This document shows, piece after piece, positions 20,792 through 64,000 of a stretch of DNA of 64,000 bases (positions are counted from its first letter, which is position 1; the number at the start of each line of letters is the position of its first letter). The translations under genes were made by a program, and so were the position numbers. The stretch comes from Candidatus Cloacimonadota bacterium (GTDB taxonomy: Bacteria; Cloacimonadota; Cloacimonadia; Cloacimonadales; TCS61). The stretch lies in the NCBI GenBank assembly GCA_018645365.1, contig JABGOP010000003.1, forward strand, positions 3,967 through 67,966, in the 5' to 3' direction. Below the pieces are notes generated by a model. That model did no database searches and was not told where the DNA came from. It saw nothing but the letters and a program-made list of their open reading frames with translations.

Positions 20792-20794
20792 TGA

Positions 20795-21762: not shown

Positions 21763-21774
21763 AAATTTACCAAA

Positions 21775-23325: not shown

Positions 23326-23384
23326 CACACCTCCAAATATGTAAATTACTTATTTATTTCATTATTTTTGAGTCAATGAAAAAA

Positions 23385-30210: not shown

Positions 30211-30211
30211 T

Positions 30212-30769: not shown

Positions 30770-30781
30770 TCTACATCCCTC

Positions 30782-31627: not shown

Positions 31628-31633
31628 AATTCC

Positions 31634-32509: not shown

Positions 32510-32510
32510 T

Positions 32511-33677
32511 TTAACCTCTCGCAGCAGCCACGACTTTTTTGGCGCCATCGCTCATACTTTCTGCAGTTATGATATTTTGAATGTTTGCTTTTTTGAGAAT
32601 TTCGGATGCTTCTTTCGCATTTGTTCCATCTAATCGAATCACGAGTGGAACATTCACATTTATTTTTTGAGTCGCTTCCAAAATTCCATTCGCAATACGG
32701 TCACAACGCACAATGCCACCAAAAATATTCACAAAAATTGCTTTTACATTTGGGTCTTTCAAAATAATTTCGAAACTTTTGGCGACTGTTTCGGCTGTTG
32801 CTTTTCCACCTACATCAAGAAAATTTGCTGGCTCACCGTTTTCGTGTTTGACAATATCCATCGTGGACATCGCCAAACCAGCCCCATTCACCACACAACC
32901 TACATTTCCATCTAGTTTTACATAACTCAAACCATATTTATCAGCTTCTAATTCAGTTGGTTCTTCTTCGTCAAAATCACGCATTGCGGCAATTTCTTTG
33001 TGTTTGAACATCGCGTTATCATCGAATCCTACTTTTGCGTCGAGAGCGATAAATTCATCATCATCGGTTAATACAAGCGGATTAACTTCAATCATATTCG
33101 CATCTTTTTGCACATATATTTGGTATAAAGATGCGACTAAGTTGGTTACTTTTTTGGTTAAATCTGCGTTCAAACCAAAAGTTTTTGCAATCATTCTGCC
33201 GTGAAAACTGCGAAAACCGATAAGTGGATTTATTTGAATTTTAACGATTTTTTCTGGCATTTCTGCCGCCACTTTTTCGATGTCCATTCCACCTTCTGCC
33301 GATGCAATAATGACTGGCATTTCGGTAGCTCTATCTAAAAGGATACTCAAATAATATTCCTCTTTGATGTCCACCGCTTCCACAATATACACTTTTTGAA
33401 CCAATTTTCCTTCTGGTCCAGTTTGGTGCGTAACAAGATTCATACCCAAAATTTCGTGAGCATATTTTCCTACAGCTTCCAAGTCTTTGGCAAATTTCAC
33501 ACCACCGCCTTTACCTCTACCACCAGCGTGAATTTGTGCTTTCACTACCCAACTTTTTCCGCCAATTTCTTTGGCAGCGGAAATTGCATTTTCTGCATTT
33601 TCGATAATTTTCCCATTTTGAACTGGAATGCCAAAATCGGCAAAAATCTGCTTCGCTTGATATTCGTGAATATTCAT
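32511..33677 (-). CDS. sucC: Succinyl-CoA synthetase beta subunit
   Basis: [12 protein letters not shown], the ATP-grasp region and a C-terminal ligase-CoA domain (GGIVRCD). Confidence 0.96.
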
Positions 33678-33686
33678 ATTCCCTCT

Positions 33687-35357: not shown

Positions 35358-35369
35358 AATTCTCTCCGT

Positions 35370-36053
35370 TTAGGTAATTTTTATTTCACGATCGTAATAT
35401 ACTTTCGATAATTCATCACGATCCATTTTGTTTAATTTTTCGATATCAGCATCATATTTCCCGTTTTTAACTTCTTCAACCCGATTATCCAATTCTGGGC
35501 TTTTCTTCGCTAAATATTTGCCGTAAAGTCGGCGTGCTAAAATGCCATTATCATATTGAACTATTTCCGCTGGACAACGCATTGCACACAATCCACAACG
35601 AATACAATCGAACGAAATATTTGCCGCAGATTCCAAATCGCCACGAATTATGGACTGAATATAGTCCATCACTTGAATATCTTGTGGGCACGCTTTTGTG
35701 CAAGTATTGCAAGCGACACATCGGAAAACTGACGGAAATAAATTTGTGAAAGTTCCCACATCTGGCGTTAATGTTTCCAATTCATACAGCGGTTTTTCGG
35801 CTGGTACAAATGGAATTTGCGTAATCGCCATTCCTTCTGTAACAACGGTTTGACAGCCCAACCCACCTTTCAATTTGTAATCGCCTTTTTCACGATAAAC
35901 AGTAGCACAAGCACCACAATATCCCTCTCGACAGCCAACACCTCTTTTTAATTGAAATCCAGCATATTCGAGCGCCATAATAATCGTTGAACCTTCTGGT
36001 ACTTTGAAAAGTTCACCAGACAGATAAACAGTTACCATCTTCTTTTCCATCAT
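35370..36053 (-). CDS. Iron-sulfur subunit ([2Fe-2S] + two [4Fe-4S] motifs), SdhB/FrdB/TfrB-N-like
   Basis: CREGYCGAC...C (plant-type 2Fe-2S) followed by CVACNTCTKACP and CIRCGLCAMRCP. Confidence 0.8.
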   Translation of the reverse strand: MMEKKMVTVYLSGELFKVPEGSTIIMALEYAGFQLKRGVGCREGYCGACATVYREKGDYKLKGGLGCQTVVTEGMAITQIPFVPAEKPLYELETLTPDVGTFTNLFPSVFRCVACNTCTKACPQDIQVMDYIQSIIRGDLESAANISFDCIRCGLCAMRCPAEIVQYDNGILARRLYGKYLAKKSPELDNRVEEVKNGKYDADIEKLNKMDRDELSKVYYDREIKIT

Positions 36054-36949
36054 TTTGCTCCCTTTATTTTTTCATATTTTTTTAAAATTTCATTTGGATT
36101 TATGGCGTTAAATTCCAATCCCAAATCACTTTTTTCTAAACCTAATGCAATTCCCAAAAGTTGAGTAAAATAGAAAATTGGCATTGTTTGAAAATCAGAA
36201 TTTTTCACTGCCATCTCTTTTTGACGAACATCAAGGTTAAAGGCACAAAGTGGACAAGATGTAATGATTGCTTCCGCTCCATTTTCGCGTGCATCATTAA
36301 TGATACCACTCACTAATTTTTTCACTAAATCAATATTTTTGACAGTGTGATAACTGCCACAACAACGGCTTTTAGCATCCCATTCTACACTTTCTGCGCC
36401 CATTGCGGTTACTAATTTTTCCATAATTTGCGGTGCTTCTGGATCATCGATGCCAACCTCTTTCGGACGCAAAAGCATACAGCCATAATAGGACGCAACT
36501 TTTAGATTTTTAAGTGGATTTTCAATTTTTAATTTATCAAAACCCCATTCATCTAAAATGGAAAGAAAGTGAACAACATCGACGCTACCTGCATAATTTT
36601 CATCCTCGCGGTGCATAAAATCATTAATTTTCTGAAGTTCATCTGCATTTTCTTTCATTCTGTTATTCGTCAAACTAAGCGTATTGTAGCACATCGAACA
36701 GAGTGTAAGCAGTCGATTCTCGCTCACGGCTTCTGCCTTATTCATCTCTTGAACACGCAGGAAATTACGAACTGGTGCGAGGTGTTTCATTAAATCGTCA
36801 CTTGTCAAAGAAGAGACAACACCGCAGCAATTCCAACGCGGAATTTCCACAAATTCAATGCCAATTTTTTTGGCAGATGCAATTGCCGACATCTCAAAAT
36901 TTTTGGCTGTTGTTTTCATTGTGCAACCTGGAAAATATGGTATTTTCAT
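36050..36949 (-). CDS. HdrB/SdhE-like subunit with two CCG domains
   Basis: Two cysteine-rich CCG units: YFPGC...WNCCG...LCSMC and YYGC...RCCGS...SCPLC. No TM helix. Confidence 0.85.
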   Translation of the reverse strand: MKIPYFPGCTMKTTAKNFEMSAIASAKKIGIEFVEIPRWNCCGVVSSLTSDDLMKHLAPVRNFLRVQEMNKAEAVSENRLLTLCSMCYNTLSLTNNRMKENADELQKINDFMHREDENYAGSVDVVHFLSILDEWGFDKLKIENPLKNLKVASYYGCMLLRPKEVGIDDPEAPQIMEKLVTAMGAESVEWDAKSRCCGSYHTVKNIDLVKKLVSGIINDARENGAEAIITSCPLCAFNLDVRQKEMAVKNSDFQTMPIFYFTQLLGIALGLEKSDLGLEFNAINPNEILKKYEKIKGAK

Positions 36950-36965
36950 CTATTTTTCTCCTCTT

Positions 36966-37370
36966 CTATCCAGTAAATTTTCGGAAATTCCCAACGAGTG
37001 CAATTGTTGGTAATTTCACAGCTTCAGCTGCATCAATTTCTGCAATATCTATGTTATCAACCGCTTCGCGTAATTTAACTTGTCTAAGTGCTTCCGACAC
37101 TTTAGAAAGGTCGAGTTTACGCGGGCAACGAATAGTGCAAGTGTAACAAGAAGCACAAAGCCACATTGTTTGAGATTCCATCACCTCTTCTTGACCGAGC
37201 ATCACGAGACGCATTATTTGAGAAGGATTTATGTCCATCTCTTCCACAAATGGACAACCACCAGAGCAGGTTCCACATTGTTCACAAAGAGTAACTTGCT
37301 CGCCGCTCAAATCCATTATTTTTTCGAGAAATTTGGTTGTTTTGTCGGTAAATTTAATTTTTTTAGCCAT
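36966..37370 (-). CDS. HdrC-like 4Fe-4S dicluster protein
   Basis: CEQCGTCSGGCP and CASCYTCTIRCP in a 134-aa protein, matching the size and spacing of HdrC. Confidence 0.8.
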   Translation of the reverse strand: MAKKIKFTDKTTKFLEKIMDLSGEQVTLCEQCGTCSGGCPFVEEMDINPSQIMRLVMLGQEEVMESQTMWLCASCYTCTIRCPRKLDLSKVSEALRQVKLREAVDNIDIAEIDAAEAVKLPTIALVGNFRKFTG

Positions 37371-37372
37371 CG

Positions 37373-39754
37373 TTATCTCTCCAATTTAGCTTTTTGCTCA
37401 TCAGAAAGTGAGCCCAATTTATCTATCAATTCAGCAAGTTTGTTGATTTCAGAAATAAATTTCATCAAATCTTTTGCTTCAAATTGTGAAAAAATTAGTC
37501 TATCAGTTTCGATGTTTAGTTTCTTGAGTTTCTCGGCAACCACTTCCATATTTTTGCGAGTTACCGCATTTGCCCATTCGAAACGAGATGCTTTGACGGG
37601 ACTATCACCCAAAAATACAGCATCTGCACCTTTTGCAAAAGCATATTCGATCAAGCTTGGCGTAATTCTACTTACACTTGGCACTCTGAAAACGCGTGCG
37701 TAATTAGTGTATTTCATTTTACGCACACCGCACGCATCGATGAGGCGATAAGTAGTGTTGTCATCCGCAAAAACGATAATCCGTTTTTCATTATCTTTTT
37801 TGAATTTTAGTGCTGCTGAAACTTCTGCATAGAGTTGCTCATTTGTGTAATAATGCAAATCGAGAGCTTCCACGGGACAGCTTTCTAAACACGAGCCACA
37901 CCCCAAACAGAGTGCTTCGTTTACTTCCGCTTTTCCGTCTGCATTGATTGAAATCGCTTTTGGTGGACAAGCATTCAAACACTTTTGACAACCATCACAA
38001 ATATCTTGGTGAACGAACGCTAAAATTGGATCTATCGGCACTTCTTTTTGGGCCAAAGTTGCGATAACTCGTGCTGCTGCTGCACTTGCTTGTGTAACAG
38101 TATCTGGAATATCTTTCGGACCTTGTGCCACACCAGCTAAGAAAACGCCTTCCACTAATGTATCGACTGGCTTATATTTCGGATGAGCTTCTTTGAAAAA
38201 CCCATCATCAGATTTTGCTAATTTCAAAGTATCGGCGACTATTTCGGACGCTTTATTCGGCTCCAAACCGTTCGCCAAAACCACCAAATCAAAATCAGAT
38301 TCGATAATATTACGCGAGAGAGTATCTTCCACCGTTACGGTTACTTTTTTGTTAATTTTATTTTCCACAAAATGGGAAGGCTTGCCACGCACAAATTTGA
38401 TTCCCATATTCTGGGCACGTTTATAATATTCTTCGTAACCTTTGCCAAATGCTCTCAAGTCCGTGTAGAAAATATAGATATCTTTTTCTGGTTTTGCTTG
38501 TTTGAGGAGCGATGCTAATTTTACCGAATACATACAGCAAACGCGCGAGCAATATTCGTTTCCAATTTGTTCATCACGCGAGCCAACGCATTGCACAAAA
38601 GCAATTCTTTTCCCTATTTTTCGAGGTGGCTCCGCTTCCGAAATGTGATCGACAATGCGTTCCATCTCCAAAGCCGTAACCACATTTTTGAATTTACCAT
38701 AGCCAAAAACAGGTTTACGCATCGCATCAAAAATATCGTAACCTGTTGCCACCACAACGCTATCTACTGCTACATCAACGATTTTTTCTTCTTGCGTAAA
38801 ATCTATTGCTTGTTGAGGGCAAATATCCACACATTTTGAACACGAGTTATCGATAAAATGAGAGCAATTTTCAGTATCCAAAATATAGCGATATGGAATT
38901 GCGTGCGGTGCTGGAATGTAAATTGCTTTACGGTCGATGACACCTTGCTCCCAATAATTCGGCTGAGAAACTGGGCAAACTTCTGTACATTTATTGCAAA
39001 TCAAACATTGATCCATATCAATATCACTTTTTATGTAACGCGGATGTATTTTCACTTTTGCTTCAAAATGAAGACGATGTCCGGCAATGTCCAAAATTTC
39101 TGCATTCGTGTAAAGTGTGATGTTCGGATGGTCGGTAACTGCCGCCATTTTAGGTGAAATAATGCACGCTGCACAATCTTCTGTTGGAAAAGTTTTGGTA
39201 AGCACCGCCATCATCCCACCGAGAGTTGGCAATTTTTCTACAAGTGTAACTTTTTTGCCAGAATCAGCTAAATCGAGCGAAGTTTGAATACCAGCAATTC
39301 CACCACCAATAACGAGAATTTCATTACCAAGTTGCATTTTTTTCTCTTGTAAAGCAAAATCTAATTCTGCTTTTGAATGAGATGCATCGACAATATCTTT
39401 TGCTTTTTCGGTAGCAATTTCGGGGATATCTTTATGAATCCACGAACAGTGTTCACGCAGATTGGCAATCTCCAAAACATATGGATTCAAACCTGCTTTT
39501 TTCAAAGCTCCACGAAATGTTTTTTCGTGAAAATGAGGTGAACAAGAAGCGACAACTATTTTTTTTAATCCGTGTTTCTTTACATCGTCGATGATAAGTT
39601 GCTGTCCTTTTCCAGAACACATATGGCTATATTCTTGCACCAAAATATCATCATTATTTTTTTTCAGATGCTCTGTTACTTTTGGTAAATCTACCGTATT
39701 AGAGATGTTCCCGCCACACTGACAGAGATAAATTCCAGTCTTTTTAGTTTCCAT
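37373..39754 (-). CDS. HdrA-like FAD/Fe-S oxidoreductase fused to a C-terminal MvhD-like domain
   Basis: N-terminal Cys-rich domain (IYLCQCGGN...HMCSG...ASCSPH). FAD motif ILVIGGGIAGIQTSL. Inserted ferredoxin CLICNKCTEVCP/CSKCVDICP. C-terminal ferredoxin CDGCQKCLNACP/CLGCGSCLESCP. aa ~657-765 are MvhD-like (IIVFADDNTTY...RVPSVSRI...GADAVFLGDSP). Confidence 0.88.
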   Translation of the reverse strand: METKKTGIYLCQCGGNISNTVDLPKVTEHLKKNNDDILVQEYSHMCSGKGQQLIIDDVKKHGLKKIVVASCSPHFHEKTFRGALKKAGLNPYVLEIANLREHCSWIHKDIPEIATEKAKDIVDASHSKAELDFALQEKKMQLGNEILVIGGGIAGIQTSLDLADSGKKVTLVEKLPTLGGMMAVLTKTFPTEDCAACIISPKMAAVTDHPNITLYTNAEILDIAGHRLHFEAKVKIHPRYIKSDIDMDQCLICNKCTEVCPVSQPNYWEQGVIDRKAIYIPAPHAIPYRYILDTENCSHFIDNSCSKCVDICPQQAIDFTQEEKIVDVAVDSVVVATGYDIFDAMRKPVFGYGKFKNVVTALEMERIVDHISEAEPPRKIGKRIAFVQCVGSRDEQIGNEYCSRVCCMYSVKLASLLKQAKPEKDIYIFYTDLRAFGKGYEEYYKRAQNMGIKFVRGKPSHFVENKINKKVTVTVEDTLSRNIIESDFDLVVLANGLEPNKASEIVADTLKLAKSDDGFFKEAHPKYKPVDTLVEGVFLAGVAQGPKDIPDTVTQASAAAARVIATLAQKEVPIDPILAFVHQDICDGCQKCLNACPPKAISINADGKAEVNEALCLGCGSCLESCPVEALDLHYYTNEQLYAEVSAALKFKKDNEKRIIVFADDNTTYRLIDACGVRKMKYTNYARVFRVPSVSRITPSLIEYAFAKGADAVFLGDSPVKASRFEWANAVTRKNMEVVAEKLKKLNIETDRLIFSQFEAKDLMKFISEINKLAELIDKLGSLSDEQKAKLER

Positions 39755-39758
39755 ATTT

Positions 39759-40298
39759 TCACTCTTTATCTGCTAATTTAAAACCGATTTTTAATGCTTT
39801 TATATTCATTTCGTGAAATCTCGGTTTGATTGAATTTTTTACTGCTTTTTTCAAGGATGCTTCACTCACAACACCTGTTTTTCTCACCAAAAATCCGAGT
39901 GACATAATGTTTGTTGGAAGCACACTTCCTAATTTTTCCATTGCTATGTTTGTAAATGGAATTTCATAAATTGTAGAATCCATTACCGAAACATTTTTTA
40001 CATTTGAACTGTCTGCAATCAAAATTCCATCTGCTTTCAAGTCGTCACTATATTTATCGCAAGCTTCTTGAGTTAATGCCAAAAGCACATCAAAACTTGT
40101 CGCTTCTGGGAAATAGAATTTTTTATCACTAATTATCACATCAGCACGGCTAGCTCCACCGCGAGATTCGGGACCATAACTCTGTGTTTGTGTTACGATT
40201 GCATTGTCTATTACAGCGGCGCGTGCCAAAATAATCCCAGCTGTAATAAGCCCTTGTCCGCCGCTTCCACTGAGACGAATTTCATTCATTCCATTCAT
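39759..40298 (-). CDS. korC: 2-oxoacid:ferredoxin oxidoreductase gamma subunit
   Basis: LSGSGGQGLITAG at the N-terminus; 179 aa. Gene order is delta-alpha-beta-gamma. Confidence 0.88.
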   Translation of the reverse strand: MNGMNEIRLSGSGGQGLITAGIILARAAVIDNAIVTQTQSYGPESRGGASRADVIISDKKFYFPEATSFDVLLALTQEACDKYSDDLKADGILIADSSNVKNVSVMDSTIYEIPFTNIAMEKLGSVLPTNIMSLGFLVRKTGVVSEASLKKAVKNSIKPRFHEMNIKALKIGFKLADKE

Positions 40299-41143
40299 TA
40301 TTTTTCTCCATCTTCAGGCTTGAGAGAATCGATAAGTTTATCGTATACTGCTGTATATTCCGGCTTAATTTCTTTACGGAAAATACCGCGTTTAAGCTTG
40401 TTTTCTCTTTCATTCTCAGTGAGAGCTTCAAAAGATTTTACTGGAATAATGTTTTCTTTCATTTGACGCATCATCTTAGAAGCATCGCCTTTTTTATTCA
40501 ATTTTCCATAAATTACCGGACACGCGCTAATCACTTCTATTAAAGCAAATCCTTTGTGTTCCAAACCTTGCTTAATGAAAGATTGAGTTTCAACAGCGTG
40601 ATACGCCGAGGTTCTCGCTACAAAAGTTGCACCAGCACCCATGGCAAGTTCACAAATATCAAAAGTTGGGTCTAAATTTCCGTAAGGTGTAGTTGTGGCT
40701 TTATCACCAGTGGGGGTGGTTGGAGAATATTGCCCACCTGTCATTCCATAGATGTTGTTATTTATCAAAATAACTGTTAAATTTATGTTACGACGAGCGG
40801 CGTGAATAAAATGATTTCCGCCAATTGCAGTTGCATCACCATCACCAGTTACCACCATCACATCCATTTTTGGTTTATACATTTTGATACCTGTCGCATA
40901 CGCTATTGCTCTACCGTGAAGCGAATGTAATGTATTGAAATCCACATAAACTGGCATTCGACTGGAACATCCAATTCCAGAAACCATCGTTGTGTTTGTA
41001 CGACGCCATTCCAATTCACCAACTGCACGCATAATCGCACCCATCACGATGCCGTTACTACAACCCGGGCACCAAACATGAGGAAATTTTTTCTTCTGTC
41101 TCAAATATTTATTATGAATGTGTTTTTGTTTGATTTTTGACAT
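40298..41143 (-). CDS. korB: 2-oxoacid:ferredoxin oxidoreductase beta (TPP-binding) subunit
   Basis: VWCPGCSNG and the TPP motif VVTGDGDATAIGGNH...NNNIYGMTGGQ. Confidence 0.92.
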   Translation of the reverse strand: MSKIKQKHIHNKYLRQKKKFPHVWCPGCSNGIVMGAIMRAVGELEWRRTNTTMVSGIGCSSRMPVYVDFNTLHSLHGRAIAYATGIKMYKPKMDVMVVTGDGDATAIGGNHFIHAARRNINLTVILINNNIYGMTGGQYSPTTPTGDKATTTPYGNLDPTFDICELAMGAGATFVARTSAYHAVETQSFIKQGLEHKGFALIEVISACPVIYGKLNKKGDASKMMRQMKENIIPVKSFEALTENERENKLKRGIFRKEIKPEYTAVYDKLIDSLKPEDGEK

Positions 41144-41144
41144 T

Positions 41145-42308
41145 TTACCGAACCTCCTTCACTTTATTTACTATATCATCCGGCGTAATCAACTCTCCGT
41201 TACATTTCTGAATTGGAATAATTCTTTTTGTTTTACTTGTGTTTATGTTCCAAATACCACCCATCACTCTTTGAATTTCACCAAGCATCTGACCTTGGCT
41301 CAATTCCGGCACGATTATTGTGTTCACATCTTTGAAATATTCTTTAATTGCTTCATCTGGAAATGGCCAAATTGTGAGTGGACGAATCAGTCCAATTTTC
41401 TTGCCCGATTTGCGTAATTTTTCTACCGCTGTTTTAGCCGCACGAGCTGTAATTCCGGCTGCAAAAATAGCAGTTTTTGCGTCTTCCATTTGGAAATTTT
41501 CCACTTGAATTAAATCCTTCAAATGATGCGTGATTTTCTTACGCAGGCGATCCATCATAATTTTTACTTCATCAGCACGATTGGTTGGAAAACCGCAAGC
41601 ATCGTGTGCCAAACCAGTAACATGGAAACGATAACCCTCACCGTAACTTGCCATTGGATGGATATATTTTGGTTTGTCTTGATAATGTTTGTACCATTCT
41701 GGTGGAACCGTTGGTTTGATTCGATTGACGATTTTCACTTTTTCCAAATCAGGAAGCACCACTGCCTCACGCATATGACCTAAAACTTCATCGAGTAGTA
41801 AAACCACGCAAGTTCTATATTTTTCAGAAAGATTGACCGCCCGAATTGTCAGTTCATAAATTTCTTTCACAGAATCTGGATAGAGAACGATAGCTGGTGC
41901 ATCACCGTGATTTCCCCAACGCGACTGCATAATATCACTTTGTGAAGGTTTGGTCGGCAAACCAGTACTCGGTCCACCACGCATCACATTGACGACTACG
42001 CAAGGTGTTTCTGTTATTTTAGCAAAACCAATCCCTTCCATCATCAAAGAAAATCCGGGACCACTTGTTGCTGTCATCGCTTTTGCACCAGCAAGAGAAG
42101 CACCAATTATTGAAGAAATACCCGCAATTTCATCTTCCATTTGAATAAATTTTCCACCTATTTTGGGTAACTCTGCCGAAAGGATTTCTGCAATTTCGGT
42201 AGATGGAGTAATGGGATAGCCTCCAAAAAAATCTACTCCCGCATCGATAGCTCCACGGGCTACCGCTTCATTGCCTTGCATCAAAATCATTTTATCTGAA
42301 CTTTTCAT
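41145..42308 (-). CDS. korA: 2-oxoacid:ferredoxin oxidoreductase alpha subunit
   Basis: GNEAVARGAIDAGVDFFGGYPITPSTEI and MTATSGPGFSLM. 2-oxoglutarate specificity is inferred from the adjacent sucCD, not from sequence. Confidence 0.92.
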   Translation of the reverse strand: MKSSDKMILMQGNEAVARGAIDAGVDFFGGYPITPSTEIAEILSAELPKIGGKFIQMEDEIAGISSIIGASLAGAKAMTATSGPGFSLMMEGIGFAKITETPCVVVNVMRGGPSTGLPTKPSQSDIMQSRWGNHGDAPAIVLYPDSVKEIYELTIRAVNLSEKYRTCVVLLLDEVLGHMREAVVLPDLEKVKIVNRIKPTVPPEWYKHYQDKPKYIHPMASYGEGYRFHVTGLAHDACGFPTNRADEVKIMMDRLRKKITHHLKDLIQVENFQMEDAKTAIFAAGITARAAKTAVEKLRKSGKKIGLIRPLTIWPFPDEAIKEYFKDVNTIIVPELSQGQMLGEIQRVMGGIWNINTSKTKRIIPIQKCNGELITPDDIVNKVKEVR

Positions 42309-55942: not shown

Positions 55943-56361
55943 TTATCGTGAGTGCTTGTTTAACGGGAATAAATTGCAGGTATGATGGCAAGAATAACCT
56001 CAATGAAAAAATAATAAAACTCGTTCAAAATGGTGATGCAATTCCAATTTGCCCCGAACAACTTGGCGGTCTTACAACTCCGCGAACGCCAGCTGAAATT
56101 TCAGGCAATAAAGTCATTACTAGAAGTGGAAATGATGTCACTATTCAATTTCAAAAAGGTGCAATAGAAACTCTTAAAATAGCTAAATTATTGAATTGTA
56201 AAACTGCTATCTTTAAAGAAAATTCACCATCTTGCGGATCTAAAAATATTTATGATGGCACATTTAGCGACAATCTAATAAAAGGTGAAGGAATCACGAC
56301 GAAATTATTAAAACAAAATGGAATCGTCGTTTACAGCGAAAAAATAAAAAAAGCCACTTGA
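55939..56361 (+). CDS. DUF523 family protein (TudS-like)
   Basis: IIVSACLTGINCRYDG and ...ICPEQLGGL...SPSCG conserved Cys pattern. It overlaps the mutS stop by 4 nt. Confidence 0.8.
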   Translation: MIIVSACLTGINCRYDGKNNLNEKIIKLVQNGDAIPICPEQLGGLTTPRTPAEISGNKVITRSGNDVTIQFQKGAIETLKIAKLLNCKTAIFKENSPSCGSKNIYDGTFSDNLIKGEGITTKLLKQNGIVVYSEKIKKAT

Positions 56362-56375
56362 AGTGGCTTTTTAAA
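56347..56375. terminator. Bidirectional hairpin terminator between convergent genes
   Basis: aaaaagccact-tga-agtggcttttt. The stem spans the DUF523 stop codon and is flanked by an A run and a T run. It lies 6 nt beyond the stop of the minus-strand 31-codon ORF. Confidence 0.75.
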
Positions 56376-56489: not shown

Positions 56490-56774
56490 TTATTTATTTG
56501 CGTCGTTTACTTCTTGCTTAAATCCACGAGAAAATTTGAAAGTTGGCACTATTCTTTCTGGCACCGTTACTTTTTCTTCCGTTTTTGGATTTCTACCAAT
56601 TCGTGCTTTGCGTGTTTTTAATTTATAAGTTCCAAAACCACGAATCTCAATATGTTTTCCCTCTTTAAGTGTATCTCTCACCGCTTCCAAAAATGCGTCA
56701 ACTGCCAAAGACACATCCTTTCTTACAATCCCTGTATCGTCTGAAACAATCCTTACTAAATCTGCTTTTGTCAT
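56490..56774 (-). CDS. hup: HU/IHF-family DNA-binding protein
   Basis: MTKADLV... and the beta-arm RGFGTYKLKTRKARIGRNPKT. 94 aa. Confidence 0.93.
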   Translation of the reverse strand: MTKADLVRIVSDDTGIVRKDVSLAVDAFLEAVRDTLKEGKHIEIRGFGTYKLKTRKARIGRNPKTEEKVTVPERIVPTFKFSRGFKQEVNDANK

Positions 56775-57024: not shown

Positions 57025-58050
57025 ATGAATAAAATTAAGTTCGGACTCATCGGATGCGGACGAATTTCCGCGAAGCATTTTGAAGCAATTGCAGAAATTG
57101 AAAACGCTAATATCATTTGCTGTGCTGACATTATCGCAGAACGCGCCAACGACGCGGCAGAAAAATATCAAATCCCAAAATTTTATACTGATTATAAAAA
57201 AATGCTCGATAATGAAAAAATCGATTGCGTAATTATCTGCACACCAAGCGGAATGCATCCAGAAATGGGAATCGAAACTACCAAAAGAAAAATAAATGTT
57301 GTTACCGAAAAACCAATGGCAATTGATTTAGAATCTGCTGACGCGCTCATCGACGCGTGTGAAGAAAATGGTGTTCGCCTTTTTGTAGTCAAGCAAAATC
57401 GACTAAACTCCACTATTCAAATGTTAAAAAAAGCAATAGATAAAAATCGTTTTGGAAAACTATTTAGTGCTAACATTACCGTTCGGTGGACACGTCCACA
57501 GAGTTATTATGATTTGGCATCGTGGCGTGGAACCTGGAAATATGACGGCGGTGCTTTCATGAATCAGGCTTCACACTATTTCGATTTGATTCAATGGATG
57601 ATGGGACCAATCGAATCGGTAATGTCTTTTACTGCCACAATGGACAAACAAATCGAAGCTGAAGATCAAGGTGGTGGATTGATTAAATTCAAAAATGGAG
57701 CCATTGGAGTTGCCGATATTTCAATGAACATTTTCCCGAAAAATTATGAAGGTTCAATTACTATTATGGGAAAAAACGGAACCGTCAAAATCGGTGGAAT
57801 TGCCGTTAATAAAATCGAACATTGGGAATTCAAAGAATATGACGATGACGACAAATTAGTGGAAAAAGTTTCCACCAATCCAACCAGTGTTTACGGCTTT
57901 GGGCATCAAGCCTATTTGCAAAATGTAGTGGATGTTTTGCACGGAATTGCAGTGCCAAAAACAGATGGTAAAAGCGGTAGAAAATCACTCGAATTAATTT
58001 TGGCGATGTATGAATCTGCTCGCACTGGCAAATTAGTGAAATTATTATAA
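57025..58050 (+). CDS. Gfo/Idh/MocA-family NAD(P)-dependent oxidoreductase
   Basis: Rossmann N-terminus KFGLIGCGRISAKH with the following EKP motif (VVTEKPMA). The ATG at 57025 follows GGGAGA; the 41-codon upstream extension (TTG at 56902) is unlikely to be real. Confidence 0.88.
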   Translation: MNKIKFGLIGCGRISAKHFEAIAEIENANIICCADIIAERANDAAEKYQIPKFYTDYKKMLDNEKIDCVIICTPSGMHPEMGIETTKRKINVVTEKPMAIDLESADALIDACEENGVRLFVVKQNRLNSTIQMLKKAIDKNRFGKLFSANITVRWTRPQSYYDLASWRGTWKYDGGAFMNQASHYFDLIQWMMGPIESVMSFTATMDKQIEAEDQGGGLIKFKNGAIGVADISMNIFPKNYEGSITIMGKNGTVKIGGIAVNKIEHWEFKEYDDDDKLVEKVSTNPTSVYGFGHQAYLQNVVDVLHGIAVPKTDGKSGRKSLELILAMYESARTGKLVKLL

Positions 58051-58062
58051 AAAGGAGATAAA

Positions 58063-58950
58063 TTGTTAGTTCAAGAATATTTTAAATCACGAACCGATCT
58101 GTTCGAAGCATCAATGAAAATCTTTATGGATCCAATCGATACTTATCCCAAAAAATTAAATGAAGCGATGCATTACAGCATTTTTAATAGAGGCAAAAGA
58201 TTGCGTCCAATTCTATTTTTAGCAACTTATGAGATGCTTATTGGCAGGAAAAACTTAAAGCGTTTAGACCGTTTGCTTCCAGCAGCCTGTGCACTCGAAA
58301 TGGTTCACACAGCTTCGCTTATTCACGATGATTTGCCGAGTGCAGATAACTCTGATGAACGAAGAGGGCTGCCGAGTTGTCATAAAAAATTTGGAGACGC
58401 AACTGCAATTTTAGCCGGCGATGCACTCATTACCAAAGCAATCGAAACTCTAACAAAGCTGAAAAGCAAAAAAGAAGCAATTGATGCTATTTCCATTCTT
58501 ACACATGCTGTTTCTACGCACGGCATGATCGGTGGACAGGCAGTTGACATCGTTTCTGCAAAGAAAAAAGCAAACAAAAATACGCTTCACTATATTCATT
58601 TGAAAAAAACTGGTTCACTTCTGCTTGCTTCAACAGAATTAGCTTGTATTTTCGCAAAAACAGAAGAAAACACACGCATCAAACTTGGGAATTTCGCATT
58701 AAATCTTGGACTTGCCTACCAAATTGTTGATGATATTTTGGATGAAATTGGCAGTTTTGAAGTTTTAGGCAAAGAACCAGGTGGCGATTCAAAAAATATG
58801 AAAGCAACCTATCCATCTGTTTTTGGATTGGAAACTTCAAAAGATAAAGCAGAAAAACTTTTGCGAGATTGCTATAATATCGTCAAAAATATGGAACACA
58901 ATGAAATTATGATTGAGTTTATCAATATGGTGAAAGAGCGGCTTCCATAA
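58063..58950 (+). CDS. Short-chain (E)-polyprenyl diphosphate synthase (FPP/GGPP synthase type)
   Basis: First Asp-rich motif LIHDDLPSADNSDERRG and second QIVDDILD. The TTG start lies 5 nt after AAGGAG. Confidence 0.9.
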   Translation: MLVQEYFKSRTDLFEASMKIFMDPIDTYPKKLNEAMHYSIFNRGKRLRPILFLATYEMLIGRKNLKRLDRLLPAACALEMVHTASLIHDDLPSADNSDERRGLPSCHKKFGDATAILAGDALITKAIETLTKLKSKKEAIDAISILTHAVSTHGMIGGQAVDIVSAKKKANKNTLHYIHLKKTGSLLLASTELACIFAKTEENTRIKLGNFALNLGLAYQIVDDILDEIGSFEVLGKEPGGDSKNMKATYPSVFGLETSKDKAEKLLRDCYNIVKNMEHNEIMIEFINMVKERLP

Positions 58951-58951
58951 A

Positions 58952-59776
58952 ATGTCATTTTTGAAAATTACGCGACCATTAAATTGCTTATTTGTCGCAA
59001 TCACTATAGTTTTTGGAGCAGTGATTGGAACAGAAAACATAGATTTACTGCCAATTATTTTCGCCACGATTTCTGCTACACTAATAGCGGCAGCAGGTTA
59101 TGTTATCAACGATTATTTTGATTTTGCCATTGATAAAATTAACCGACCAAACCGTGTTCTGCCAGCCGGCAAAATAACACCAAAAAGTGCTTATATTTAC
59201 AGCATTACCCTCTTTACTTTTGGTATTTTTTTCTCGTTTTTCACAAATAATATTTACTGCATTTTTTTGGCATTTATCAACGCAATTATTCTATTTTTGT
59301 ACGCAAAATATTTCAAACTAACACCTTTTTTTGGCAATTTAATCGTGGCATATATCGCAACAAGCACCTTTCTTTACGGTGCTTTTAGTAACGCAAACTT
59401 GGTAAATATTTGGATGATTGCCACTTTCGCATTTTTGCTCACATTAATCCGAGAATTAATCAAAGATTGCGAAGATATCGAAGGTGATGCGAAACTGAAA
59501 GCAAAAACCTTGGCTCTCATTTTTGGTATAAAAAAAACGATTCAAATAGCTTTCATCGTGGCAACTATAATGATTTTGTTCGTGCTATTTTTGTGGTGGC
59601 AAGCTTATATTTCTAACTCTACGATTATCCTTTTGAACGCATTTGTCATTCTGCCGACACTCCTATTCTTCGCATCTTTAAAACAAAATTTTGAGAAAAA
59701 CAATCTTGCTCGAATTTCAAAATTCGTCAAAATAGATATGCTGATTTTACTAATAATTTTAGGATTGAAAATATGA
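58952..59776 (+). CDS. UbiA-family prenyltransferase, digeranylgeranylglyceryl phosphate synthase (DGGGPS)-like
   Basis: About 8 TM helices. NDYFDFAIDKINRPNRVLPAGKI and KDCEDIEGD...KTLALIFG match the DGGGPS-type versions of the two UbiA Asp-rich motifs (from memory). It is directly coupled to GGGPS. Confidence 0.8.
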   Translation: MSFLKITRPLNCLFVAITIVFGAVIGTENIDLLPIIFATISATLIAAAGYVINDYFDFAIDKINRPNRVLPAGKITPKSAYIYSITLFTFGIFFSFFTNNIYCIFLAFINAIILFLYAKYFKLTPFFGNLIVAYIATSTFLYGAFSNANLVNIWMIATFAFLLTLIRELIKDCEDIEGDAKLKAKTLALIFGIKKTIQIAFIVATIMILFVLFLWWQAYISNSTIILLNAFVILPTLLFFASLKQNFEKNNLARISKFVKIDMLILLIILGLKI

Positions 59777-60519
59777 AAACTTATGAAAAACTAATCGCAC
59801 TTAAAAAAGAAAGAGCCAATTACTTTTGTTTGATAGATCCTGACAAATTGGATGAAATTCAAGCGGCAGAAACTGCTCTAAAATGTGAAGAAAACGGTGC
59901 TGACGGCATTTTAGTAGGTGGTAGCATTATGCTCAAAAACAACTTCGAGCAAAATCTCAAAATCATCAAAGAAAATGTGAAAATTCCAGTTTTAATTTTT
60001 CCTGGAATTTTCAATTTCGTCTCACCATTTGCAGATGCTCTTTTGCTTCTCAGCGTCATCACAAGTCGCAATCCACAAATGCTCATTGGCGAACAAGTGC
60101 GTGCGGCACCGCTCATCAAACACCACAATTTGGAAACCATCGGAACTGGCTACATGCTGATAGAATCTGGCGAAACAACATCCGTTCATTTTATGAGTGG
60201 AAGCATGCCACTACCGCGCACTAAAAATGACATTGCCGTAGCACACGCTTTGGCTGGGCAATATCTCGGTATGAAAATCATCTATTTAGACGCTGGAAGT
60301 GGTGCAAAATACCCCGTTCCAGATGAGATGATTACGGCAATTCGCCAAAATGTTGACTTGCCAATTATTCTCGGTGGTGGAATTAATACACCAGAAATAG
60401 CTGCTCAGAAAGCAAAAGCTGGGGCAGATTTTATCGTAACTGGAAATATCCTGGAAAAAAATAATAATCCACAATTGATTCGAGAATTCGCCGATGCCAT
60501 TCATAGCGTAAAAAAATAA
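59773..60519 (+). CDS. pcrB: Geranylgeranylglyceryl phosphate synthase (GGGPS/PcrB family)
   Basis: TIM-barrel PcrB/GGGPS motifs GADGILVGGS, LLLSVITSRNPQMLIGEQV, IYLDAGSGA, ILGGGI and FIVTGN. It overlaps the DGGGPS-like gene by 4 nt. Confidence 0.88.
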   Translation: MKTYEKLIALKKERANYFCLIDPDKLDEIQAAETALKCEENGADGILVGGSIMLKNNFEQNLKIIKENVKIPVLIFPGIFNFVSPFADALLLLSVITSRNPQMLIGEQVRAAPLIKHHNLETIGTGYMLIESGETTSVHFMSGSMPLPRTKNDIAVAHALAGQYLGMKIIYLDAGSGAKYPVPDEMITAIRQNVDLPIILGGGINTPEIAAQKAKAGADFIVTGNILEKNNNPQLIREFADAIHSVKK

Positions 60520-61244
60520 TGATCGACATTCACACCCACATTTTACCTGAAATTGATGACGGCTCAAAAAGTTTGGAAAATTCCATTGAGCAAGTAAAAT
60601 TCATGGCGAAAAATGGCGTCACCGATATTGTCTGCACACCTCATTTTATTCGGAATTATTGGCACAACACAGCCGAAATTATTTCTGAAAAATTTAAACA
60701 ACTTCAAAAAGCAGTCAAAGATGAAAACATCAAACTACATCAAGGTTGTGAAGTTTATCTTGATGAAAATTCACTACAAACAATTCAAAATCAAAAACTA
60801 AATATCGGCAACACAAATTATGTTTTAGTGGAAACAATGATGACTGAATTTCCCGTCAATTTATTCGACATTTTGTATCAACTTGTAAAAGCAAATTTCA
60901 AACCAATCCTCGCTCATCCCGAACGATATTTACCCATTATTGCAAATTTTGAATTGGCAGAAAATTTTATGTTTCGCGATATTTATTTACAAGTAAATGC
61001 AGGTAGTCTTTTTGGGAAATATGGCAAAAAATCACAAAAAACCGCTTTCAAGATGATCGATTATGGATTTGCACATTTCGTAGCGTCGGATAATCATTGT
61101 CGTAACTTTCACTACCCTTTGCCCGCCGCCTTTGAAGTAATTTCAAACCAATTTGATGAATATACCGCAAATTTATTAACCCAAGTAAATCCCGCAAAAA
61201 TGTTACAAAATGAGAACATACCTATTTTTTATTTGGAAAAATAA
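60519..61244 (+). CDS. PHP-family metal-dependent phosphoesterase (CpsB/YwqE-like)
   Basis: MIDIHTHILPEIDDGS, TPHF, AHPERY and SDNH histidine/aspartate metal ligand pattern. Confidence 0.85.
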   Translation: MIDIHTHILPEIDDGSKSLENSIEQVKFMAKNGVTDIVCTPHFIRNYWHNTAEIISEKFKQLQKAVKDENIKLHQGCEVYLDENSLQTIQNQKLNIGNTNYVLVETMMTEFPVNLFDILYQLVKANFKPILAHPERYLPIIANFELAENFMFRDIYLQVNAGSLFGKYGKKSQKTAFKMIDYGFAHFVASDNHCRNFHYPLPAAFEVISNQFDEYTANLLTQVNPAKMLQNENIPIFYLEK

Positions 61245-62209
61245 TGAAAATTCTGATAACTGGAATTAGCGGTTTTATCGGCAAAAATGTTGCTCGAAAT
61301 TTATTGAAAAAAAATGTTCAAATTACTGCAATTGTCAGACCAAACACCAATTTTAAACGAATAGCAGAATTTGAAAACAAGGTAAAATTTATCGAAATAG
61401 ATTTAACTAATATAGCCACATTGCGTAACTTTCTTTCCGAAAATGCTTTTGTCCAAATCATTCACATTGGAGCAATTCGCGGTGGTAGAAAATTCACAAA
61501 ACAGCAATATTTTGATGCGAATGTAAATGCGACCGAACAACTAATTATCAACGCAAAAAAACACAATTCAAAATTCATTTTTTGCTCTTCGGTAGGAGTT
61601 TTCGGAGCAATCCCAAAAGAATTACCCGCAAATAATTTCACCGAAAGACAAGAAGACAACTATTATCATTTCACCAAGATTTACGCTGAAAAAATCATCC
61701 AAAAGCACGTCCTAAATGGGTTGAGTGCCGCAATTGTACGCCCTGCAATAACTTACGGCGAAGGTGATTTTGGTTTCCCTTTCACACTCACAAAACTCGT
61801 AGATAAAAATTTGATGTTTCTACCAAATCACGAAGTTAAGATTCACCTCACAAATATCGAGCTAATCGTGCAAGCTTTTAACAAGCTTTCCGAAATTGAC
61901 TTTAAATCTGGAACTGCTTACAATGTAGCAGATTTACATCCCGTGAAATTGACAGAAATTGTTGATTTTATCAATCAAGAATTGCATCAAAAAAAATATT
62001 CGCGTCATAAAATTATTAATGTTAAATTTTTCGATTTTGGAGAAAAAATTGCCCGATTTCTAAAAAATGAACTTTGGGTTTCTCGTTTTGAATTAATTTC
62101 CAAAAGTTGGTATTATAACACTCAAAACAGTTACACCAATCTCGGTTTGAAACACATTGAAACGATTCCAAATTTCAAAATTGTCACAAATTGGTACAAA
62201 GGTTTGTAA
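61244..62209 (+). CDS. NAD-dependent epimerase/dehydratase-family SDR
   Basis: KILITGISGFIGKN Rossmann motif and a YxxxK-like segment (YHFTKIYAEK). Confidence 0.85.
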   Translation: MKILITGISGFIGKNVARNLLKKNVQITAIVRPNTNFKRIAEFENKVKFIEIDLTNIATLRNFLSENAFVQIIHIGAIRGGRKFTKQQYFDANVNATEQLIINAKKHNSKFIFCSSVGVFGAIPKELPANNFTERQEDNYYHFTKIYAEKIIQKHVLNGLSAAIVRPAITYGEGDFGFPFTLTKLVDKNLMFLPNHEVKIHLTNIELIVQAFNKLSEIDFKSGTAYNVADLHPVKLTEIVDFINQELHQKKYSRHKIINVKFFDFGEKIARFLKNELWVSRFELISKSWYYNTQNSYTNLGLKHIETIPNFKIVTNWYKGL

Positions 62210-63043
62210 ATGGCAATTCCGATTTTAAAAACTTGGAAAAACTATTTTTCAAATTACGATGAAGGCTTAGGCTCATCCTACGAACGCATTATTTTGAACA
62301 ATAAAATTGTTGAAATTTGTGCAAAATTTAGAGTAAAATCTGTTTTGGAAGCCCCAAGTTTTGGCTTTACTGGACTTTCCGGTATCAACAGTTTACAACT
62401 CGCAAAAAGCGGTTGTGAAATCACTCTGTTCGACCATGATAAAGAGCGAATTGAATTAATAAAATCTATTTGGAATGAGGTAAATTATCCTCTTAAAATT
62501 GAATTTTCAAAAAACTATAATTCACTTCCATTTACAGATAATCATTTTGATTTCAGTTGGAATTTTTCAGCACTTTGGTTTGTTGATAATTTACAAAAAT
62601 TTCTCTCTGAATTAACTCGTACTACCGAAAAAGCAATTTTAATCTGCGTTCCAAATCGGACTGGAATCGGCTATCTTTCCCAAAAATTCCTTGGTAAACA
62701 AGATTTAAAAAAATTATTGAAAGAAAAAAATATTTTACCTAAAAATATCCAAAATGAAATGCACAAACTAAATTGGGAGCTAGTAGAAACAAATTACATT
62801 GATGTGCCTTGGTGGCCAGATATTGGCATGCCAAAAGATAAATTTGCTAAAATTTTAAAACTCGATTGGCTTCTCAAAAAAGAAAAAAGAAAACCAATTT
62901 CCATTATGGATTTTTACAAAAATAAAGACAATGAATTTCCTGAAAAAATGATGAAACATTTTTGGTTTGAAAAATTTGCACCAAAAATAATAAAAAAAAT
63001 TTGGGCACATCATAAATATTTTCTATTTGTTCCCAAAAAATAA
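62210..63043 (+). CDS. Putative class I SAM-dependent methyltransferase
   Basis: Motif-I-like VLEAPSFGFTG, acidic LFDHD after beta-2 and FDFSWNFSALWFV (motif II/III-like). The assignment is weak. Confidence 0.5.
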   Translation: MAIPILKTWKNYFSNYDEGLGSSYERIILNNKIVEICAKFRVKSVLEAPSFGFTGLSGINSLQLAKSGCEITLFDHDKERIELIKSIWNEVNYPLKIEFSKNYNSLPFTDNHFDFSWNFSALWFVDNLQKFLSELTRTTEKAILICVPNRTGIGYLSQKFLGKQDLKKLLKEKNILPKNIQNEMHKLNWELVETNYIDVPWWPDIGMPKDKFAKILKLDWLLKKEKRKPISIMDFYKNKDNEFPEKMMKHFWFEKFAPKIIKKIWAHHKYFLFVPKK

Positions 63044-63059
63044 AAAATAGGAGGAAATA

Positions 63060-63254
63060 ATGAAAACCAAACTTTTTTTGAGATTTTTCTTATCATTCGC
63101 AGTAATCTATTTTCTTGTAATTAAATTTGTCCCATTCCTGAAAATAGAGAAACTCTTAAGTTACTTAATTATTCAAACTTTAATTATCAGTGTTTTTTAC
63201 GCTATTTTCATGACTTGGTTCTCACTTCGCAAAAAAAAGAATGAAGAAAAATAG
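63060..63254 (+). CDS. Hypothetical small two-helix membrane protein
   Basis: 64 aa with a strong AGGAGG Shine-Dalgarno and two hydrophobic helices. Confidence 0.5.
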   Translation: MKTKLFLRFFLSFAVIYFLVIKFVPFLKIEKLLSYLIIQTLIISVFYAIFMTWFSLRKKKNEEK

Positions 63255-64000
63255 CATCAATTGGATTGTCGGTATAATTCTCGGAGCCACATTCTTAATG
63301 GTGTGGCTCCACCTTATCGACTGGCAAGAATTTCTACAATATTTCCAAAAATTCGATTTAACGGTAATGTTATTTTTTTCGATTTTTTATGTTTTCGCCT
63401 ATTTTTTACGAGCGTTACGTTGGAAAATCATTCTCAATCCGATTTACAAAATGAACATTGGGGAAAGTTTTGCTATTTTCATGAGTGGTCTTTTAGTAAA
63501 TTACATCATTCCAATTCGAGCGGGTGAAGTGGCAAAATCAGTCATTCTCAAAACCAGAAATCATCTCAAAATTTCACAAACATTACCAACAGTTTTTATC
63601 GATAAAATCACTGATCTTTTCCCAATTTTACTAATTATGCTACTTATTCCTCTCGTTTCAATAAAGCTAAATTTCACACTTTATTTCATCATTCTACTAC
63701 TCTTTATTATTTTATTATTTTTTGTTTGGTTTCTATATTTTGCGATAAATCATCAGAAAAAAGCATTCAAATTCCTTCACCTATTTTTGAAAATAATACC
63801 CTTCAAATATCGTGCAAAACTTGAAGTTTTTTTTGCTAATTTTGTGGATGGAATGGGAATTTTAAATAGAAGATGGAAAGCAATAACGCTCATTTATCTG
63901 CTCACATTTTGGGCGGTAATTTCAGAAGCACTCTACATTTTTATGGTATTCAAAGCATTTGGTGCAGAAATTTCCTATCTCAAAATTCTTTTCGGCTACA
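63241..64000 (+). CDS. Flippase-like membrane protein (LPG-synthase-TM / UPF0104 family), 3' end outside the window
   Basis: Frame-1 ORF from the ATG at 63241, open to the window end, so it is absent from the ORF track. Hand translation gives MKKNSINWIVGIILGATFLMVWL...LRALRWKIIL...IPIRAGEVAKS..., the family's R-x-x-RW and P-x-R-x-GE signatures. Multiple TM helices. Confidence 0.7.
   Translation, partial: MKKNSINWIVGIILGATFLMVWLHLIDWQEFLQYFQKFDLTVMLFFSIFYVFAYFLRALRWKIILNPIYKMNIGESFAIFMSGLLVNYIIPIRAGEVAKSVILKTRNHLKISQTLPTVFIDKITDLFPILLIMLLIPLVSIKLNFTLYFIILLLFIILLFFVWFLYFAINHQKKAFKFLHLFLKIIPFKYRAKLEVFFANFVDGMGILNRRWKAITLIYLLTFWAVISEALYIFMVFKAFGAEISYLKILFGY

Follow-up and report, generated by a model that had tools for sequence, protein, structure and literature searches.

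In a 64,000-nucleotide stretch of contig JABGOP010000003.1 from a Candidatus Cloacimonadota bacterium (the window, by which we mean the whole stretch analysed), three adjacent genes encode a short-chain trans-isoprenyl diphosphate synthase (IDS), a digeranylgeranylglyceryl phosphate (DGGGP) synthase-type prenyltransferase of the UbiA family (DGGGPS), and a geranylgeranylglyceryl phosphate (GGGP) synthase of the PcrB family (GGGPS) (Table 1). We read this locus as the form that the core pathway of archaeal diether lipids takes in Cloacimonadota, carried on an ordinary segment of a bacterial chromosome, and put the probability of that reading at about 85%. The ether-lipid trio is already known, and published biochemistry together with the deposition of identical proteins makes the locus a rediscovery of an experimentally supported system. 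The extent of the operon around the trio and a Glu-to-Asp change in the GGGPS had gone unreported in what we have seen of the literature.

Villanueva et al. (ISME J 2021, PMC7852524) found GGGPS co-localised with DGGGPS in the "Ca. Cloacimonetes" metagenome-assembled genomes (MAGs) NIOZ-UU1-4, assigned the GGGPS to group II, located a polyprenyl synthase in the same scaffold region, which they amplified by PCR, verified the NIOZ-UU3 scaffold by PCR, and detected transcripts of all three genes in Black Sea water. A purified Cloacimonetes GGGPS converted geranylgeranyl diphosphate (GGPP) to GGGP with sn-glycerol-1-phosphate (G1P) and also with sn-glycerol-3-phosphate (G3P), and co-expression of GGGPS with DGGGPS in Escherichia coli yielded phosphatidylglycerol archaeol (PG-archaeol) that carries eight double bonds (PMC7852524). 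Taken with the sequences described here, these assays of orthologues establish that the two enzymes form the two ether bonds with C20 donors. A first-pass annotation of the window had proposed that its host can probably make diether isoprenoid glycerol lipids and that ether lipid should appear on expression of the genes. Family assignments and published orthologue biochemistry support the former, and the formation of GGGP and PG-archaeol by close Cloacimonetes orthologues (PMC7852524) bears out the latter.

Results

The core genes. The open reading frame (ORF) listing and the junction sequences agree exactly with three ORFs separated by a 1-nt gap (TAA-A-ATG between IDS and DGGGPS) and then a 4-nt overlap (ATGA between DGGGPS and GGGPS), as first described. 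A Shine-Dalgarno sequence, AAAGGAG, ends 5 nt before the TTG start of IDS. The peptides previously picked out as diagnostic, NDYFDFAIDKINRPNR and KDCEDIEGD in the UbiA protein and GADGILVGGS, SRNPQMLIGEQV, and IYLDAGSGA in the PcrB protein, are all found in the translations. Pfam matches lie far beyond chance, with E-values of 6.8e-57 (polyprenyl_synt, IDS), 2.8e-37 (UbiA, DGGGPS), and 7.4e-43 (PcrB, GGGPS). NCBI already holds proteins 100% identical to all three ORFs, from Candidatus Cloacimonetes MAGs, under the names polyprenyl synthetase, geranylgeranylglycerol-phosphate geranylgeranyltransferase, and geranylgeranylglyceryl/heptaprenylglyceryl phosphate synthase.

Table 1. Ether-lipid genes of the window and the features that adjoin them (window coordinates)
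Feature	Coordinates	Strand	Remarks
Bidirectional terminator-like hairpin	56348-56372	.	closes convergent TudS and HU genes; upstream boundary
WlbA-like GFO/IDH/MocA oxidoreductase (GFO)	57025-58050	+	Pfam GFO_IDH_MocA; first gene past divergent HU promoter region
IDS, short-chain trans-isoprenyl diphosphate synthase with type II pattern (predicted to make GGPP)	58063-58950	+	295 aa, TTG start
DGGGP synthase-type UbiA prenyltransferase (second ether bond)	58952-59776	+	274 aa
Group II GGGP synthase (first ether bond)	59773-60519	+	248 aa
PHP-family phosphatase (PHP), CpsB/YwqE type	60519-61244	+	Pfam CpsB_CapC 1.3e-51; PDB YwqE 3QY6 1.3e-30
Extended short-chain dehydrogenase/reductase (SDR), NAD-dependent epimerase/dehydratase fold	61244-62209	+	Pfam Epimerase 9.9e-30, 3Beta_HSD 4.9e-17
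Class I S-adenosylmethionine-dependent methyltransferase (MT)	62210-63043	+	Pfam Methyltransf_11 7.9e-9
Hydrophobic ORF, poorly conserved	63060-63254	+	64 aa; AGGAGG ribosome-binding site
MprF-type flippase-like membrane protein (LPG_synthase_TM)	63241-64000	+	cut by window end

The DGGGP synthase-type enzyme. Five DGGGPS-type NCBIfam models matched the UbiA protein with 212 (PRK12882), 181 (PRK12884), 157 (PRK12883), 132, and 108 bits, against 77 for EboC, 70 for ChlG, 48-55 for UbiA, 47 for CyoE, and 22 for MenA. The DGGGPS models are ones that we take to have been built on archaeal sequences. Among structures in the PDB, the only strong match was the Methanocaldococcus jannaschii DGGGPS (MjDGGGPS, 6M31; 1e-33 over residues 2-268), followed by chlorophyll synthase at 9e-9, and no UbiA, MenA, or COX10 structure matched better than 1e-3. 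Alignment to 6M31 places N62/D66/D70 of MjDGGGPS motif 1 at N53/D57/D61 of the window protein, Y125/K130 of motif 2 (Yx5K) at Y117/K122, and D180/D183/D187 of motif 3 at D172/D175/D179, so that every residue reported to be functionally important in MjDGGGPS is kept. The scores and the single strong structural match uphold the original identification of the protein as DGGGPS-type and not MenA, UbiA, or CyoE.

That this protein instead prenylates another acceptor (a quinone, a chlorophyll-like molecule, or an EboC-type substrate), and that its adjacency to GGGPS is incidental, is very improbable. The UbiA superfamily is functionally diverse, and the protein scores below the curated equivalog cut-offs of all the DGGGPS models (212 bits against 296 for PRK12882). 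The DGGGPS models nevertheless lead each of the remaining UbiA branches by over 130 bits, the acceptor- and donor-site residues of MjDGGGPS are all kept, the gene overlaps GGGPS by 4 nt and is closely spaced with it in 44 of 52 loci (see below), and an orthologue shows DGGGPS activity in E. coli.

The GGGP synthase. The window GGGPS is a group II enzyme and belongs neither to group I nor with Bacillus PcrB, as judged from model and structure matches. It passes the cut-offs of TIGR01769 (217 bits against 161.6) and NF003198 (282 against 247). Its best structures, 4JEJ from Flavobacterium johnsoniae (4.7e-54) and 4MM1 from Methanothermobacter thermautotrophicus (2e-52), are both of group II, and matches to the group II structures 4JEJ, 4MM1, 6NKE, and 6JO3, Thermoplasma among them, span 1e-41 to 1e-54. 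The group I enzyme of Archaeoglobus fulgidus (2F6U), by comparison, matched at 3e-5, and the heptaprenylglyceryl phosphate synthases of Bacillus (4NAF, 3VZX, and 1VIZ) at only about 1e-6 to 5e-7. On the heptaprenylglyceryl phosphate synthase equivalog NF003197 the protein reached 35 bits against a cut-off of 260. Bacillus-type long-chain specificity of the PcrB homologue, which the first-pass annotation had named as a finding that would count against its reading, is thus supported by neither the structures nor the models.

Active-site residues were matched through the Y-x-E motif and alignment; the residues that a review (PMC9385802) numbers Y134/Y178/E180 in the M. thermautotrophicus enzyme (MtGGGPS) have the chain indices Y130/Y172/E174 in 4MM1. 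The phosphate-binding loops are kept, as are both tyrosines proposed to govern stereoselectivity (Y127 and Y171). The glutamate of the Y-x-E motif, whose proposed role is to polarise the hydroxyl of glycerol and, jointly with the two tyrosines, to set stereoselectivity for G1P (PMC9385802), is Asp173 in the window protein (about positions 60289-60291), a residue that retains the carboxylate at one carbon shorter. Aspartate occupies this position in 61 of 64 sequences, that is, in every Cloacimonadota sequence examined, including that of NIOZ-UU2, and glutamate is kept at the loci from Poribacteria, KSB1, and Chitinophaga as well as in the F. johnsoniae (Fj) and M. thermautotrophicus structures. 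Because a Cloacimonetes enzyme is active, taking both G1P and G3P, the exchange must be tolerated, and it may relate to the reported promiscuity between the two substrates. Comparison with the published MAGs was made on the NIOZ-UU2 GGGPS fragment (locus L058), to which residues 91-248 of the window protein are 84% identical. Asn225, at a phosphate-loop position that reads G-N or G-T, was considered as a second peculiarity of Cloacimonadota and set aside, as bacterial outgroups have Asn there too.

The prenyl diphosphate synthase and chain length. The IDS scored 285 bits on the NCBIfam FPPsyn subfamily (cut-off 275) and 257 bits on the CrtE equivalog (cut-off 460), so that only the broad subfamily was passed. 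It has a first aspartate-rich motif (FARM) of the DDx2-4D form, DDLPSADNSDERRG (DDLPSAD, residue 89), with a two-residue insertion whose first residue is Pro, and a second aspartate-rich motif (SARM) of the DDxxD form, DDILD, at residue 223. In type II GGPP synthases the two-residue FARM insertion is accompanied by small residues at positions -4 and -5, which replace the aromatic residue of farnesyl diphosphate (FPP) synthases (PMC9385802). Inspection of these chain-length-determining residues, which the first-pass annotation had recommended, found Ala/Ser at -5/-4, invariant in 50 orthologues. The closest structures, 7MY6 and 7MXZ (cyanobacterial, CrtE-type), carry Met/Ser there, and the FPP synthase-type entry 3UCA carries Tyr at the corresponding flanking position. 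By this signature the IDS is predicted to be a type II GGPP synthase.

In the GGGPS, the proposed limiter of donor length to C20 in helix alpha3' is V83, aligned with V86 of MtGGGPS and I90 of FjGGGPS, both proposed for this role in group II (PMC9385802), and it is Val in 58 of 64 GGGPS sequences. A product whose chain length or chain number differs from that of archaeol, such as one with chains of C25 or longer or an accumulated monoether, is unlikely, although chain length cannot be read with certainty from sequence, the group II limiter has been described as poorly defined (PMC9385802), and Ala at FARM position -5 is smaller than the Met of characterised type II GGPP synthases. The Cloacimonetes orthologues used GGPP and made a C20/C20 diether, the residue at the limiter position matches that of the C20-specific MtGGGPS, and the heptaprenyl (PcrB) models score very poorly.

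Extent of the coupled unit. The three genes had been described as one translationally coupled unit. The coupling stands, but its end at position 60519 does not, since overlaps continue into PHP, SDR, and MT, and the coordinates given at first span only the first half of the unit. The GGGPS/PHP and PHP/SDR junctions are each a TAATG overlap, and SDR abuts MT as TAA-ATG. The coupled unit comprises at least six genes (IDS, DGGGPS, GGGPS, PHP, SDR, and MT), after which the flippase-like gene follows. Their arrangement suggests that the genes are co-translated. The block holds a single weak terminator-like site on the plus strand, within the PHP gene at 60659, a count no higher than in shuffled sequence. 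A promoter scan (39 sites, against 29.9 +/- 5.9 in shuffles) was uninformative in this AT-rich DNA.

Among the accessory proteins, the SDR keeps its GxxGxxG (TGISGFIG) and YxxxK (YHFTK) motifs, and its best NCBIfam matches, to HpnA, GalE, OleD, and SdmB, are weak. An AlphaFold model of the MT (pLDDT 89.4, from a 40-sequence alignment) retrieved with Foldseek from the PDB generic class I methyltransferases alone, at a TM-score of about 0.5. These neighbours mix sugar, prenyl, and phosphoethanolamine methyltransferases, and an assignment of the substrate from the fold was dropped as the neighbours are unspecific. The 64-aa ORF has no Pfam match, and just 2 of 63 loci contain counterparts, both weak at 38-39% identity. 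The flippase-like gene follows MT in most loci, and a full-length orthologue in locus L001 matches PF03706 at 3.4e-37.

Conservation across genomes. A GTDB-wide scan for GGGPS provided a synteny sample of 63 loci; locus numbers in this text fall within L001-L069. The order GFO-IDS-DGGGPS-GGGPS-PHP-SDR-MT recurs in nearly all of the Cloacimonadota among them (about 50 genomes), with median spacings of 15, 6, 1, -1, -4, and 4 nt. DGGGPS lies at most 10 nt upstream of GGGPS, overlapping it or a few nucleotides away, in 44 of 52 loci, and in 51 of 57 loci GGGPS and PHP are spaced by -1 or -4 nt. The whole MutS-to-MoxR region, with MutS, TudS, and HU on the upstream side and MoxR on the downstream side, keeps its order throughout the phylum, and conservation of gene order alone is therefore weak evidence of a functional link.

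In part, the conservation goes beyond phylum-wide synteny: four rearranged contexts argue for a functional tie of the accessory genes to isoprenoid lipids. In high-GC Cloacimonadales (L051-L054), GGGPS-PHP-SDR-MT is kept and the upstream IDS and DGGGPS are replaced by ValRS, acetyltransferase, and transposase genes. On a 1.9-Mb contig (L065), the order is IDS-PHP-SDR-MT-flippase, with neither GGGPS nor DGGGPS intervening. The PHP gene directly follows GGGPS in a KSB1 MAG (L060). In two Calditrichota loci (L064, 7032-16811; L067, 7024-11487), orthologues of SDR and MT with 49-59% identity stand directly before two family 2 glycosyltransferase (GT2) genes, and on the one contig that reaches further (L064) next come genes for a PMT_2 (GT-C) glycosyltransferase, a polyprenyl synthase, and a UbiA-family protein. 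The Calditrichota neighbourhoods hint at a setting of prenyl lipids and glycosylation for the SDR-MT pair.

These contexts bear on the possibility that the enzymes act as proposed but do not serve bulk synthesis of archaeal-type phospholipids. On this view the phosphate of GGGP or DGGGP would be stripped by PHP, and SDR, MT, and the flippase would modify the product and export it as a minor envelope lipid of neutral or glyco type. The 1- or 4-nt overlap of GGGPS with PHP, their adjacency in the KSB1 MAG, the integrity of GGGPS-PHP-SDR-MT where IDS and DGGGPS are not adjacent, the L065 arrangement, and the Calditrichota SDR-MT genes beside GT2, PMT_2, IDS, and UbiA genes all favour such a route, as do the MprF-type lipid flippase domain of the final gene and the lack of CarS in related MAGs. 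Precedents are found in the Bacillales, where the PcrB product is dephosphorylated and then acetylated by YvoF, and in the acetylated archaeol of haloarchaea. On the other side, the four accessory proteins have no known substrate, PHP is closest to protein-tyrosine phosphatases of capsule loci, the MT fold search was unspecific, the collinearity from MutS to MoxR makes part of the conservation plain synteny, and E. coli produced PG-archaeol from two orthologues without any accessory gene. On balance we consider this route possible but doubtful.

Two further observations concern the distribution of the locus. No more than 4 kb of a Poribacteria chromosome (OZ220722.1; L059, 4793-8708) holds two UbiA genes, of which one is DGGGPS-like, and also a group II GGGPS, with an ORF for a SpoU methylase separating them; co-localisation of GGGPS with DGGGPS is consequently not strictly confined to Cloacimonadota, contrary to the 2021 statement. 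The full HU-IDS-DGGGPS-GGGPS-PHP-SDR arrangement also occurs in two loci deposited as 'Armatimonadota bacterium' MAGs (L017 and L018), labels that are probably taxonomic or binning errors.

Genomic setting. Across the locus and its flanks GC content stays level at about 0.35, and GC skew likewise matches the flanks. The genes in the rest of the window are bacterial, of the type found in the Fibrobacterota-Chlorobiota-Bacteroidota (FCB) group: MutS, Rho, UvrB, RuvB, and a sigma-54 activator, together with a TonB-dependent receptor with CarboxypepD_reg and a type IX secretion system (T9SS) C-terminal sorting domain. GpsA, the NAD-dependent glycerol-3-phosphate dehydrogenase (8537-9523), adjoins nucleoside diphosphate kinase, so that the G3P route is encoded in the same window.

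An assembly or binning artefact, in which archaeal DNA had been joined to a bacterial contig, is effectively refuted. The sequence is MAG-derived, and the two 'Armatimonadota' loci illustrate that binning labels can be wrong. The base composition is nonetheless that of the flanks, bacterial-type genes overlap the trio on both sides, over 50 independent assemblies show the same arrangement, GGGPS sits in the GGGPS-PHP-SDR-MT context in assemblies of megabase scale and of chromosome level, and the NIOZ-UU3 scaffold was verified by PCR.

At the upstream boundary, the GFO oxidoreductase matches 3Q2K and 3Q2I, which we take to be WlbA UDP-GlcNAcA 3-dehydrogenases, at about 1e-108, with the alignment running from residue 43 onward. 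Because homology begins only there, the start is probably ATG 57025 and not TTG 56902, 41 codons upstream, which leaves a divergent intergenic region of ~250 bp shared with the HU gene (56490-56774, minus strand). The gene lies 12 nt from IDS in the window (median 15 nt over 40 loci), and its membership in the lipid unit is uncertain. It was also considered as a G1P-forming dehydrogenase; the match to the presumed WlbA structures makes a role on sugar nucleotides more likely, and the candidate was rejected.

Other parts of the window hold genes of separate interest. In the 797-aa ORF at 30-2423, a complete phosphoglucose isomerase (residues 42-514) is joined with a Macro domain at the C-terminus (648-760), a combination that is, to our knowledge, unusual. 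A long fermentation and energy block (19676-23328 and 28759-42308, minus strand) encodes a Na+-pumping decarboxylase (OAD_beta, biotin carrier, and carboxyltransferase), malic enzyme, two-subunit fumarase, succinyl-CoA synthetase, a flavoprotein resembling fumarate reductase along with Fer4 and CCG (HdrB-like) subunits, a fusion of an HdrA-like protein with MvhD (FlpD) that is 793 aa long, and a 2-oxoacid:ferredoxin oxidoreductase. Such gene content is consistent with the succinate/propionate metabolism proposed for Cloacimonadota. At 24674-28666 (minus strand), an 806-aa ORF whose only match is a weak C-terminal one to YfhO is followed by a lipid kinase of the DAGK_cat/YegS type (24674-25570) and by a TP_methylase protein.

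Discussion

The observations support a model in which IDS would extend dimethylallyl diphosphate with isopentenyl diphosphate to a C20 diphosphate, consistent with its type II signature, and thereby supply GGPP to its neighbours. The group II GGGPS would ether-link the C20 chain to glycerol phosphate, as a close orthologue does in vitro with G1P and also G3P, and DGGGPS would add the second C20 chain, as the orthologue pair does in E. coli. The product would be unsaturated archaetidic acid, which bacterial enzymes of the CdsA and PgsA types could convert to phospholipids, as proposed in the literature. The trio would be translated within a longer coupled transcript that includes PHP, SDR, MT, and the flippase-like protein, and these accessory proteins may tailor or export the ether lipid or supply its head group.

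Action of the back half of the operon (PHP, SDR, MT, and the MprF-like flippase) on the ether lipid is put forward tentatively, and we would not bet on it. Conceivably, the back half yields a dephosphorylated, modified, and exported lipid other than an archaeal-type phospholipid. It is likewise conceivable that it sets glycerol stereochemistry in place of the missing G1P dehydrogenase, with, for instance, an oxidoreductase that works on C2 of glycerol.

Several points weigh against the reading of the locus as a core archaeal-type diether pathway. Two were met above: the DGGGPS scores below curated cut-offs and the aspartate in place of the GGGPS glutamate. Among window ORFs of at least 120 aa, over the full 64 kb, there is no G1P dehydrogenase (egsA/araM), CarS, or geranylgeranyl reductase. 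The egsA/araM and carS genes were also reported absent from the four related MAGs, in which geranylgeranyl reductases and two polyprenyl synthases were reported present, and PG-archaeol formation in E. coli needed a co-supplied GGPP synthase and G1P dehydrogenase (PMC7852524). No Cloacimonadota isolate has been analysed, and ether lipid has never been tied to the phylum in vivo; a 2025 follow-up still treats Cloacimonadota as inferred lipid producers, without a culture. Finally, the coupling of a phosphatase to GGGPS and the presence of sugar-type enzymes in the operon imply that the product may not be an archaeal-style phospholipid.

The Cloacimonadota system is the main natural example argued for archaeal-type ether lipids in bacteria, and hence for mixed membranes. 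That argument was made with biochemistry in 2020-2021, and the window adds another genome with the same locus. Reconstitutions so far expressed only GGGPS and DGGGPS. In the genomes, both appear to be consistently co-translated with PHP, SDR, MT, and the flippase-like protein. Neither these four genes nor the Glu-to-Asp change is discussed in the parts of the paper and supplement of Villanueva et al. (PMC7852524) that we consulted, which deal with GGGPS, DGGGPS, and the polyprenyl synthase only. If the four accessory proteins do act on the lipid, its end product, head group, stereochemistry, and biomarker signature could differ from those of PG-archaeol.

Comparison with known systems

Bacillus PcrB and the window GGGPS are both ether-bond formers of the PcrB family in bacteria. 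The Bacillus enzyme is of group Ib, takes a C35 donor, and forms just one ether bond, in contrast to the group II enzyme of the window. Dephosphorylation and YvoF acetylation of its product offer a possible functional analogy for PHP and MT, although the window operon, unlike Bacillus, has no YvoF-type acetyltransferase.

The group IIb GGGPS enzymes of Bacteroidota (F. johnsoniae 4JEJ and Chitinophaga pinensis) are closer: 4JEJ is the best structure match (4.7e-54), and these are bacterial group II enzymes with demonstrated GGGPS activity on G1P. They keep the glutamate, unlike the window enzyme with Asp173, and the Chitinophaga locus, again unlike the window, has no DGGGPS, IDS, or PHP-SDR-MT near its GGGPS.

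With the archaeal pathway from GGPP synthase through GGGPS to DGGGPS (4MM1 and 6M31), the locus shares families, folds, catalytic motifs, and reaction order. It differs in that its host is bacterial, with GpsA in the same window; its GGPP synthase is predicted to be of the bacterial/plastid type II and the archaeal one is type I; G1P dehydrogenase and CarS are unreported in the Cloacimonadota lineage; its GGGPS has Asp for the catalytic Glu; and its operon also includes PHP, SDR, and MT.

The nearest relatives are the NIOZ-UU1-4 MAGs, which are of the same phylum and likewise carry the three genes on one scaffold with a group II GGGPS. The window represents a different MAG and species, and with NIOZ-UU2 it shares an identical downstream synteny of PHP, SDR, MT, and flippase.

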